From assembly GCA_964016885.1 (NCBI GenBank), contig OZ024747.1:9982001-10046000 (forward strand): a stretch of DNA of 64,000 bases, read 5' to 3'. Position 1 is the first letter of the stretch; every line of letters begins with the position of its first letter. The DNA is from Eledone cirrhosa. Taxonomy: Eukaryota. Position numbers and translations under genes: made by a program. Positions 1 through 45,329 of this stretch are shown one piece after another. Below the pieces are notes generated by a model, which did not search any database, was not told where the DNA came from, and was given only the letters and a program-made list of their open reading frames with translations.

Positions 1-1204
1 CAAAATGGAGCGCGCCCTCTTTTATTTCCTTTGGAAGAAGAGGTCTCCTCTGGTGAGGAGATCCATCTGCTGTCAACACCCTCTGAAAGGAGGGCTGGGG
101 ATGCCGTGGCTAAAAATGCGTAAACACGCATTGAGGCTAAGGTACCTCCAGGTATTCCTCACCGGTCAACCGGTGTGGGCCCCGTTTGTGAGGCGAGCCT
201 TCCCGAGGCTCGTCTCGCTCACCGAGCTGCAGTCCTGGGTGAAGCAAAGACCGAGAAAACTGGGCGACTGGCACATCGAGTGTGCCCAGGCGCTCACGGC
301 TCTCTGGCAGGCGGACCCGGCTATCGACGGAGACTCCACCTCGTCATTCTATAGAGGGCTGGTGGTTAGCGGGTGCGACGACGCCCTTGGAGAAGCCCTA
401 GGCATGGAGGAGGACGAACTGGCCAGTCTATTCGGTAGGACTTTCGGCCCGGGACCTATGGACAACTTCCAGAAGTCCTTGGCCTGGCAGTGCTACCGAG
501 GGGCTCTGCCCGTTCGGGATAAGCTCTACAGACACGGGCGCCCGGGTAGGGACCCCTCGAAAAAGATCTGTCCCAGATGCGTGCGCGATGAGGAAACCGT
601 CGCGCACGCATTGGTGCACTGCCCGGGCGTTGCCGATCTGTGGGGCTATGTCGAACAACTGCTGTCACGGGTGGGACCAATTAGGTTGACCACCGAGTCC
701 ATAGTAACGATCAAGCCGCCTCCCCCCTTCAAAAATGAAGGAGAGGCGGTCTTCCTCTGTGTAATAGCCATGGTAAAAGAGGCTATATGGTGGACGCGTC
801 TGAAAGGGCTGAGGTCGGACACCTTTCTCTCCGGCCAACAACTGGTCCTTTTCTTCCGATACCATTTCGGAAGAAGGATCAGGATGGAGAGAGAGGTGCT
901 CCACTCCAGCCAGTTTTATGAAAGGTGGGTGAAAGTTGCGAGAATGGACCGTGTGAATGGGCCTTCTCTCTACCTCAGCCTGTAGGTGGAACAGAAAGAA
1001 GGGAGCACCCTCTCTTTGTGCTCCCGTGGAGAAGGGTCACACACTTTTTTTCGGGGGTGTGTGTGACCCCAAAACGATCCCCCCCTATTGAGGACCTTCT
1101 TGTTATTTTGTTTGTTATATTTTTCTTACTCGATTTTTATGTAAACTCCCCCCACCCATGTACATGTCCCTTTCTTTTGTGCCCTAGTGGCAAATAAACA
1201 GAAA
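1..1204 (+). mobile_element. Tx1/L1-clade LINE, 3' end of ORF2 (zf-RVT) plus 3' UTR; young copy
   Basis: Uninterrupted GC/CpG-rich ORF 5-985 with P..GGLG.P and CPRC...ETVAHALVHC zinc knuckle; AATAAA at 1193-1198. Confidence 0.88.
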
Positions 1205-1237
<33 letters not shown>

Positions 1238-1242
1238 TTGTG

Positions 1243-1297
<55 letters not shown>

Positions 1298-1607
1298 GTT
1301 TGTGTGTCTGTCTGTCTGTTTGTCTGTCTGTTTGTTTGTGTGTCTGTCTGTCTGTTTGTCTGTCTGTTTGTGTGTCTGTCTGTCTGTCTGTTTGTGTGTC
1401 TGTCTGCTTGTTTGTGTGTTTGTCTGTTTGTGTCTGTCTGTGTGTATGTCTGTCTGTCTGTTTGTGTGTCTGTCTGTTTGTGTGTCTGTCTGTCTGTCTG
1501 TTTGTGTGTCTGTCTGTCTGTCTGTTTGGGTGTCTGTCTGTCTGTTTGTTTGTGTGTGTGTCTGTCTGCGTGTGTGAGTCTGTGTGTGCGTCTGTCTGTG
1601 TCTGTTC
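1205..1607. repeat. (TCTG/TGTT)n microsatellite
   Basis: Directly visible. Confidence 0.95.
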
Positions 1608-1640
1608 AGCAGATGATGATTAATGGAATAAGTACCATAC

Positions 1641-1871
1641 TTAACCCTTTTGTTACCAACCCAGCCAAAAGCCTTGGTTCTATGGAATAAAATCACCCAT
1701 TTTAAAGGTTTCCTATTCAAATTAAAATCTTCCAACATAAATTTATATAAGAACCTTACATTGAGTTACTGTCATAGGAATGAAATAACACTTTTAGTAA
1801 ATCCCTCAAAATTCTTCATTAATTAATGGAAATAGTGTATTTCATTAGAAATATGGCCATGAAAGGGTTAA
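1641..1871. mobile_element. TTAA-flanked MITE (piggyBac-like termini)
   Basis: TTAA-CCCTTT ... AAAGGG-TTAA termini; related copy at 7061-8182. Confidence 0.7.
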
Positions 1872-2700
1872 GTCTTAGGGTTGAAATCTGGCTGTAGAAT
1901 ATCACTTCAAATAAGTCATTTCTGCCCCATGCCAGTATACTAAAGAGGATGTAAAAATAGTGATGATTGCCCTCAAATTACACCCTACACATTGAGTAAT
2001 GTGGTTCCCAGCATAAAAAGACAGGATGATCACAGCTGGTATGTTTTTTCTATGATAGGTCATTACCATCAACACTGACCTAGGGTTAAACAACAGCAAC
2101 ATGGTGGTGGGCTTAGTGTACACATTTCTTTCCAATCTCATTTTTATGTTTTTGTTAGGTTTCTATAATCAATATGTCTATTTAATGAATCAACACAGCA
2201 GATATTTCACATGCCATCATAAAAGAACTGCTAGTCATATATAAATGATGAATGTATGCGTGTGTGTTTGTATGTATGTGTAAGTGTGTGTGCATGTATG
2301 TATGTGTGAAAGTGTGTGCATGTATGTATGTGCCTGCATGTCTGAATGTGTGAGTGCGTGCTGATAGGAACACAGCTTATATTTTACAAACATCCCTGAT
2401 TGATACTTTTGCTATGTTCCAGTTTTATATAATTATATAATTACTATTAATGATTTTTCATATTTTCCTTGTTAGTTCCTTTTTTTTTTATTTGTTCTTG
2501 AACAATAAATTTCTGGGTTCCATTAATGTTTAAAAACCTTCTCAGTCTTATTTTCTGCATGACATGAATGTGGCTTCCATTGTAGACAAGTCGTGGGAAT
2601 AATGCTGTCACTTTTCTCACGGAATATCACCAGGTTTTTAGATTTTCTACCCATTTTATGTTGGCTTGGCTTTCCTCTTTTAATATTGTGGATGGGGTCA

Positions 2701-2895
2701 GGGCAGTGGATTGGTGGAATTGTTAGTTATAGTTCTTTACATTCTGAGTTCAAATCCTGCTGAGCTCAGCTTTAACTTTCATCTTTCAATAAATATAGTA
2801 CCAATAAAATACTGGGGTTGATTTAATCAACTTTCCTCACCGACCCCCCCCCCCCCCTCACAATTATTGACCATGTGCCTATGCTAAAAACAATA
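2701..2895 (+). mobile_element. tRNA-derived SINE, family 1
   Basis: B box gagttcaaatcc, tttcatc...gtacca...ctggggttgatttaatcaac body; many copies in window. Confidence 0.75.
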
Positions 2896-3101
2896 TTGTG
2901 GATGTGGTTACTGTTGTTATAATTTTTGTTGTTGAGTCACTGTTCAAGCCTGATCCAAGAAATTAGAGCTGTTATCTCTTATTTTTAAGGGTATATCTAG
3001 GACTGTTTTGACCTTCCATATGACTAGTATAATTGTGTTAGGGGCTTAAGAAAAGTATGTGTGTGTCTATATATATATGATTTTTTTTTCTTTATATACA
3101 G

Positions 3102-36215
<33,114 letters not shown>

Positions 36216-43941: not shown

Positions 43942-43978
<37 letters not shown>

Positions 43979-43989
43979 TTAATATAGAA

Positions 43990-44044
43990 AAGGCTTCTAC
44001 AGGACTAGAACTGTTTCATTCGGGAGAAATCATCAGGAAGCCCT
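43990..44044 (-). ncRNA. Type I hammerhead ribozyme motif
   Basis: Minus strand: agggcuuc CUGAUGA u-uuc-uccc-gaa-u GAAA cag-uucuaguc-cug UA gaagccuu. Complete core, 8-bp stem I, GUA cleavage triplet; U.U at the base of stem II. Confidence 0.75.
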
Positions 44045-44121
44045 GTGGTTACCCCTGAATGAACCTGGGTTAAACTTATATTGTATATAAAACAAAACAA
44101 GACAGAAGTCAGAGGTAGGTG

Positions 44122-44223
44122 TGTTTCTGAAGAAGAGGAACTTCAAGACTAGAAATAGGTAGTAACTTAACCACTTCCATGTTAGCCAATACATCGATCT
44201 TCCTCTGAAACGACTGTAAAACA
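44122..44223 (+). ncRNA. Type I hammerhead ribozyme motif (minimal stem III)
   Basis: uguuu CUGAAGA agaggaa..(~59 nt)..uuccucu GAAA c-gacu-g UA aaaca. Complete core, 7-bp stem II, GUA triplet; stem I extended by a 26-bp inverted repeat (44095-44120 / 44239-44264). Confidence 0.7.
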
Positions 44224-45329
44224 ATTAATTAATTTACAACCTACCTCTGATTTCTGTCTTGTTTACATTGTCCTATACACAAACACACACATATATATAT
44301 ATAAATGACTCTGTAACCTAGGCGGATCTTCTTCGAGGAAACCTTAAGTGGTGGTCACCTACCACAAAACTACTGGTCACACTACCTAATCTCACTGCAA
44401 CTATCTTTCGAAGGACACATTGAGTTCTAACATTGTTATCAGCTTCACTACAACCAAGTGGAATATGAGATATATATATATATATGTGTGCATGTATGTA
44501 TGTCGTCCCCCCCCCCCCCTATAACTCGCAGGGGAGCTGTATTGATATAAAGTGTTTCTAGGGCATTTTAAACCCTGGTGGAGCCCATATCTCCAGGTCT
44601 GAATACAGCAGATTTCTTCCAGACAAAGGGTCTAGTGGGAGCGACTTGACCATGAAACAGGTTGTACTGAGTTACATGGTACCAGTAGTAAGCAGAAGCC
44701 TGCCCTGAATAAATACAATATTAGCTCATGTTAATCACATCATCAAAGGGAGATGAATTTTATTTTTTATTTTTTAATTAATTCAATAAACAAAAGTTGT
44801 TTCCCCTATTAAATAAAAGAGGAAAACAGCAAATACAAAGTCACGTCTTCGATGAGATTGTGTGATTCTGAAGGTTATTTTGATTCTTGATTTTTGTTGT
44901 TTACTAATGTAAAGGAAACCTGAAGAATGAATGAATTATTCATGAAACTGGTGAGATCTGAAATACCCAAATTATATGAGTGTAAAATTCACCTTCAAAA
45001 TGTAACAGGTGTAATATTCACCTCCAAAGTGAAACCGGTGTAATATCCATCTCCAAAGCGTAACAGGTGTAATATTCACCTCATTTACATAAAACCTTAA
45101 AGTTGATGAAAATTGGAAAAATATTTTATCAGTTATTTCTTAGCTTCTATACAAGTATATATGGTAGACCCACACCTACATACTCTTCAGTCCCAAATAA
45201 TGGGAGGGGGGGGAATCGGTAATTTTACTAAGTTGTCTCCATTGGTTGTGGTGGTGAGGAGGAGGAACCTTACAATGTATACACTATTAACTTCAAGCTC
45301 CATCGAAAACTCTCCTCATTTTACCATTG

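Follow-up and report, generated by a model that had tools for sequence, protein, structure and literature searches.

The closest described counterparts of the locus analyzed here are the hammerhead ribozymes in the pseudo-LTRs of Penelope-like elements (PLEs), which Cervera and de la Pena (2014, PMC4209133) described as thousands of mostly solo copies derived from truncated elements, with dual minimal hammerheads reported on opposite strands at distances of 100 to 700 bp. PLE insertions are described as 5'-truncated, often with an inverted 5' copy, and as favoring microsatellites with a bias toward TA (PMC8557442). The PLE protein is reported to nick AT-rich DNA, reverse transcription starting internally near the hammerhead (PMC11167929). 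Non-LTR retrozymes, by the published accounts, require tandem units of the same polarity (PMC7229834; bioRxiv 10.64898/2026.07.22.740005). The axolotl hammerhead HHR_Amex2, whose helix II carries a U.U mismatch at its base, shows weak self-cleavage in monomeric form (22% in one hour) and cleaves better as a dimer (PMC7229834). Viroid-like circles may carry ribozymes in both polarities, and in the carnation case such an element is reported as integrated (PMC7761336).

We analyzed a locus of Eledone cirrhosa (assembly of ∼3.0 Gb) at which two hammerhead motifs of opposite polarity lie side by side, within a 64,000-nucleotide stretch of contig OZ024747.1 hereafter called the window. The two motifs belong to separate high-copy repeat families, A on the minus strand and B on the plus strand, and not to one unit; the locus very probably consists of 5'-truncated PLE terminal repeats of two families that were inserted independently into one TA tract. 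The likeness to the pseudo-LTR hammerheads described in PMC4209133 extends to the type I core, to a helix II that is long and a helix III that is short and palindromic in family B, and to the occurrence of mostly solo copies, few with a full ORF, together with opposite-strand pairs. In contrast to the pairs described there, each of the two motifs here stems from a family of its own, and family A departs from the minimal PLE hammerhead of that account in having a 4-bp helix III capped by an 8-nt loop, and in its short helix II, which a U.U mismatch closes. The mismatch at the base of helix II is a trait that family A shares with HHR_Amex2 (PMC7229834).

As in the endonuclease-bearing Penelope/Poseidon PLEs, there are 5' truncation, inverted 5' copies, microsatellite or AT-rich targets, alternative 3' ends, and hammerheads just upstream of an RT/GIY-YIG ORF, although the locus itself is without an ORF (PMC8557442; PMC11167929). 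Metazoan non-LTR retrozymes are likewise noncoding, PLE-derived, and equipped with a type I hammerhead (PMC7229834), but the head-to-tail units of 150 to 450 bp and equal polarity given for them are absent here (PMC7229834; bioRxiv 10.64898/2026.07.22.740005). Viroids and the carnation retroviroid-like element resemble the locus in being small and noncoding with a hammerhead on each strand; unlike in viroid-like RNAs as described, the motifs here neither travel together nor pair with each other, and they belong to host retroelement families (PMC7761336). We found no description of families A and B in a search of the literature, whose supplementary motif lists could hold related ribozymes.

Two hammerhead motifs in a TA-rich tract

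A hammerhead descriptor run on the window returned exactly two motifs, at 43990-44044 and 44122-44223, where a first-pass annotation made from the letters alone had placed one hammerhead on each strand. Dinucleotide-shuffled windows (n = 100) gave a mean of 0.04 descriptor matches, with an opposite-strand pair within 300 nt in 0 of 100, so the two motifs are not due to chance. Both are real, and the annotation was right to read them as type I hammerheads of the Penelope kind. The features of the locus, in window positions, are as follows.

43942-43979, no strand: (TG)n(TA)n microsatellite adjoining the family A fragment at its 3' end, from the sequence
43980-44044, minus: family A fragment, consisting of the hammerhead and a short 3' stub that breaks off into a TA tract, from sequence comparison
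43990-44044, minus: family A hammerhead motif (type I), core and three helices
44043-44085, plus: inverted 5' arm of family A, copied from the terminal part of the family's 3' tail (87% match)
44077-44092, no strand: degenerate TA-rich spacer at the A-B junction, from the sequence, with no second spanning match among the best 40 of 170 candidates
44095-44120, minus: inverted 5' arm of family B, the left arm of the inverted repeat and a reverse copy of 44239-44264
44122-44223, plus: family B hammerhead motif (type I), a damaged copy, core and three helices
44224-44468, plus: family B 3' tail, within which a CA/TA run lies at 44274-44303, from comparison of copies
44470-44485, no strand: (AT)n tract adjoining the family B fragment at its true 3' end, from the sequence

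The minus-strand motif combines, as annotated, an 8-bp stem I with CUGAUGA, GAAA, and GUA; its stem II has 3 bp and is closed by a U.U mismatch, stem III has 4 bp with an 8-nt loop, helix I is open, and the cut is predicted between 43998 and 43997. On folding, the hammerhead lies 1.1 kcal/mol above the minimum-energy fold. The plus-strand motif also agreed with its earlier description (CUGAAGA, GAAA, and GUA, a 7-bp stem II, and a 2-bp stem III). It has a 5-bp stem I, a 59-nt loop on stem II, and the segment GAAAC-GACU-GUA, in which stem III has just 2 bp, and the cut is predicted after 44218. Its minimum-energy fold is not a hammerhead (−10.1 kcal/mol when constrained to the hammerhead versus −15.2 kcal/mol when free). 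The Rfam hammerhead models, which had been proposed as a check, did not recover either motif: a scan of the region found no hammerhead family at E values of up to 1 or up to 10. Rfam microRNA matches at the locus were rejected as microsatellite artifacts.

The 26-bp inverted repeat noted around the plus-strand motif was confirmed (44095-44120 against 44239-44264; 26 nt, 96%). The proposed limits of a ∼290-nt cassette bounded by repeats did not hold, because the CA/TA run at 44274-44303 that forms the right edge is internal to family B, which runs on to 44468, ∼190 nt beyond the proposed unit; the 290-nt boundary is thus not the boundary of an element. Family B copies have two 3' ends ∼180 nt apart, one at this CA/TA run (in many copies) and one corresponding to 44468, and all eight matches to the distal end motif continue into TA-rich sequence. 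Such spacing differs from that of described PLEs, for which a tail of 30 to 40 nt is given (PMC8557442; PMC11167929).

The family A fragment in the window is without the 80-nt tail that longer copies carry. Its arm at 44043-44085 is oriented opposite to the A hammerhead and matches tail positions 40-77 of the copy at genomic locus L030 with 87% identity; the same arm is present in copies L003, L021, and L023. An inverted piece of the same family lies within 120 nt upstream at 19 of 30 and 12 of 30 family A loci, in two samples with some overlap, and longer inverted 5' copies of the B tail occur in L002, L004, L026, and L157. Both the A and the B fragment are 5'-truncated with an inverted 5' copy, and since in each of them a short stretch of the fragment's 3' tail recurs in inverted form, the 26-bp inverted repeat is explained. 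Copies of both families sit in TA or other microsatellites, as judged from flanks read singly and not against a genomic background rate.

A trivial source of the arrangement would be misassembly. Contigs from two of three DNA runs span the junction (44029-44167) at low depth with no differences, making an assembly artifact unlikely; the three runs represent one sample, possibly the assembly's own source. Summed contig depth over the A motif was 10^5 to 10^6. Nearby, at 44550-44700, the window holds another very high-copy repeat, with a summed contig depth of up to ∼190,000.

Two repeat families and a single-copy junction

The annotation had favored a reading of both motifs as parts of one unit, which copies elsewhere in the genome do not support. 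A genome search with the 291-nt region gave 57 matches (best 40 of 1,662 candidates scored), among which the window alone covers the whole query; the rest span about positions 1 to 105 or about 97 to 291 and so hold the A part or the B part only. When the 96 nt across the A-B junction were searched (best 40 of 170 candidates scored), the full match was in the window only, and the other 40 matches were to the A arm alone. As only the best 40 candidates were scored in each DNA search, rare diverged composite copies could be missed. At the locus itself the A-B unit is not repeated in tandem, and there is no terminal or tandem redundancy.

Each part is abundant on its own. The exact A core, a 26-mer identical to that of the window, has 1,895 genome matches (control, 0), a looser family A pattern has 25,895 (control, 1), and a 20-nt family B pattern has at least 634 (control, 0). 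Family B was found within 1.5 kb of none of 30 exact-core A loci and none of 30 loose-pattern A loci (a few overlap), and family A was present at 2 of 30 B loci, versus 0.8 expected from uniform placement.

Pairs of A and B-type motifs 60 to 260 nt apart adopt the divergent arrangement of the window 14 times genome-wide, the window included, and the other three arrangements 11, 40, and 27 times, so that of the window is not the commonest. Because the anchors sit at differing offsets and the B pattern also catches related families, these counts show that there is no fixed orientation and do not give exact rates. When the 14 divergent loci were read, their spacers differed (mostly TA runs), as did the partner subfamilies. 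BLAST identified a family B partner in 5 of the 14, namely, the window, L111, L119, and the near-duplicates L121 and L124; at the remaining loci the partners are related families, and L112 is not family A.

Opposite polarity is also common within family A, where 37 of 100 motifs, among the matches listed, have an opposite-strand A neighbor within 400 nt; a same-strand A neighbor within 450 nt occurs at 4 of 100, again among the matches listed. For this reason opposite-polarity hammerhead pairs, which are used as a sign of viroid-like RNAs, call for caution in such genomes, where they arise routinely. The opposite-strand A pairs are head-to-head, and many are joined at the 5' strand of stem I (e.g., L038/L039 and L188/L189). 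The window itself holds a second, partial family A hammerhead at 22540-22582 on the plus strand (95% over 44 nt), where it opens a 39-bp minisatellite array.

Penelope-like ORFs and the state of the two ribozymes

Comparison with ORF-bearing loci suggests that family A is likely a terminal-repeat fragment of a PLE. At L196 and L215, an A-type hammerhead (93% identical to that of the window over 45 nt) and its tail (87% identical to the tail of the window's subfamily as found in L030) run straight into a frameshifted ORF, which has 37 to 42% identity with residues 11-732 of the 743-amino-acid ORF of L141. The ORF-linked copy represents a sister subfamily and not the exact one of the window. L141 carries its Penelope-type frame at 480-3009 on the plus strand, behind the hammerhead of a third family, C, in the order TA, inverted arm, hammerhead, tail, ORF. 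ORFs of this family are very numerous, with 40,867 first-look candidates, and in the Atlas clusters nearest to the L141 ORF (score, 0.96 to 0.98) some members bear HTH_animal, GIY-YIG, and RVT_1. We take the L141-type ORF, with its putative RT and GIY-YIG motifs, to be Penelope-like. A Pfam search gave no match for either ORF tested, a PDB sequence search did not name the PLE-type ORF, and the 64-kb window contains no PLE-type ORF.

Exact-core A copies are mostly above 94% alike (94 to 100%). In the family A alignment (24 distinct rows of 31), loop II varies and the stem pairs stay. Double-sided changes occur at 2 of 6 pairs of stem I (16 cells; 0 of 500 shuffles) along subfamily lines, and because they separate subfamilies they count as few events; in the same alignment stems II and III show no double-sided change, and their pairs are conserved. 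The family A motif of the window may still cleave weakly.

Family B, too, is likely a PLE end, as suggested by its architecture and by its likeness to an ORF-linked family at L216. There, an intact 834-codon Penelope-type frame (2062-4566, plus strand) lies downstream of a long-stem-II hammerhead, and that family and family B agree at 24 of 25 nt in the 3' block of the hammerhead. Statistically this similarity is weak (nhmmer E, 0.11); the pairwise local score of 31 equaled, and did not exceed, the best of 200 shuffles. Just upstream, L216 also carries an opposite-strand family A motif, an independent pile-up like that of the window. There was no ORF-linked family B copy among 30 loci from a tail search, no ORF beyond the distal end of family B at eight distal-end matches, and no ORF-linked B in 10 stretches of about 8 kb. 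The ORF in L183 and L217 was not counted as B-linked, being preceded by a TA run and a different leader, nor was a C-terminal ORF piece in L234, which lies 600 nt off with an inverted arm in between.

Family B copies are mostly 75 to 88% alike. The closest relative of the window's copy is L156 (99% over the distal tail). Compared with it, the window's copy has lost 14 and 15 nt in two deletions, and with them the basal part of stem II on both arms, which leaves a 7-bp stem II; the same deletions are seen on alignment against 11 full-length B copies. Chance is a plausible cause of the paired deletions, since each lies between short direct repeats and other copies have single-arm deletions. Loop III of family B contexts is GATC in 35 of 55 and GACT in 3 of 55, among them the window and L002. 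Compared with the palindromic GAUC of the family, the GACU of the window lowers the computed stability of the self-duplex from −10.0 to −0.5 kcal/mol, so that the plus-strand motif is without a stable helix III as a monomer and without a palindromic loop III for a dimer. With the loop III palindrome and both basal stem II arms gone, the B hammerhead of the window is modeled as probably inactive. A consensus fold of 12 B copies reached −2 kcal/mol with no hammerhead structure and no compensatory pairs.

Origin of the locus

Two separate insertions at one TA tract would yield this locus by steps inferred from published PLE biology. The GIY-YIG endonuclease of a PLE would nick AT-rich DNA, and reverse transcription would begin internally, just downstream of the hammerhead, and usually stop early; the early-stopped product would often fold back, leaving an inverted arm. 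The TA flanks of each insertion could then serve as the target for the next. Family A is probably the younger insertion, placed next to a resident B copy, because A copies (mostly >94%) are more alike than B copies (75 to 88%). An active element would use its hammerhead to cut the precursor RNA, probably in dimeric form or assisted by protein. Here, each strand holds one ribozyme only, so no unit-length circle would be released by self-cleavage.

Independent insertion leaves room for family B to be an old nonautonomous family, SINE-like or a solo retrozyme, that uses PLE proteins in trans and adjoins A incidentally. We consider this unlikely, if far from negligible. It would fit the short, diverged copies (75 to 88% alike) and the finding of an ORF-linked B copy in none of the examined loci, but the 3' hammerhead block is common to the L216 family that precedes an intact 834-codon PLE-type frame, and the pattern of inverted arms and microsatellite ends is the same as in the ORF-linked families A and C. 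This reading refines independent insertion of PLE ends and does not replace it.

The annotation had favored an ambisense retrozyme-like element or an endogenized viroid-like RNA, with a back-to-back pair of Penelope terminal fragments inserted in a TA tract as a mundane alternative. Genomic copies with one motif family each and attachment to Penelope ORFs were among the observations that it named as refuting its inference; the single-motif copies and the link of family A to a Penelope-like ORF argue against the former two, and the evidence favors the latter. If A and B had fused once and were now moved or processed as one noncoding unit, the opposite polarity within 130 nt, the 13 further places at which the pattern finds the same arrangement, the 7-bp helix left by the double deletion in stem II, and the stable fold computed for the 291-nt region (z about −6.5 for either strand) would all fit. 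Yet that stability is due mainly to the inverted arm of B itself, and the A and B regions fold almost separately, with only a few bases paired between them. The A-B junction is moreover single-copy among the candidates scored and the unit not tandemly repeated, the 13 other places differ in spacers and partners (with family A missing from one), the remaining arrangements occur at least about as often, family B extends 190 nt past the proposed unit, and its loop III would give a dimer helix of −0.5 instead of −10.0 kcal/mol. A composite element is thus very improbable. We give even less credence to the idea that chance-fused PLE ends form a young, single-copy ambisense cassette, transcribed both ways and cut by both ribozymes; if they did, the paired 14- and 15-nt deletions would be the outcome of selection for the RNA fold, and the locus would illustrate how host retroelements can give rise to a two-polarity ribozyme unit. 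Endogenization of a viroid-like circular RNA by reverse transcription into the genome, as for the carnation retroviroid-like element, could account for about 300 nt of noncoding sequence with one hammerhead per strand, and viroid-like circles that carry a ribozyme in each polarity are known, as is one integrated example (PMC7761336). That origin is hardly credible, however, for a locus whose halves are both members of large host repeat families, one of them linked to a PLE-type ORF, with neither terminal nor tandem redundancy, no rod pairing the two ribozyme regions in folds of either strand, and, among the candidates scored, no independent copies that hold both motifs as one unit.

The locus is likely an ordinary transposon pile-up, not a viroid-like RNA; Penelope-type ends have piled up in this way at many places in a genome that contains at least 26,000 such hammerhead motifs. 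Family A, with its 4-bp helix III, U.U-closed helix II, and very high copy number, is fair material for studies of PLE hammerhead function, as is the intact 834-codon frame of L216.

Elsewhere in the window, positions 56509-61801 are occupied by a 123-bp tandem array of 44 copies, which match at 95% and include an internal (CAA)n. Open frames at 2-983 on the plus strand and 52116-53143 on the minus strand are presumably fragments of LINE reverse transcriptases, which they resemble.
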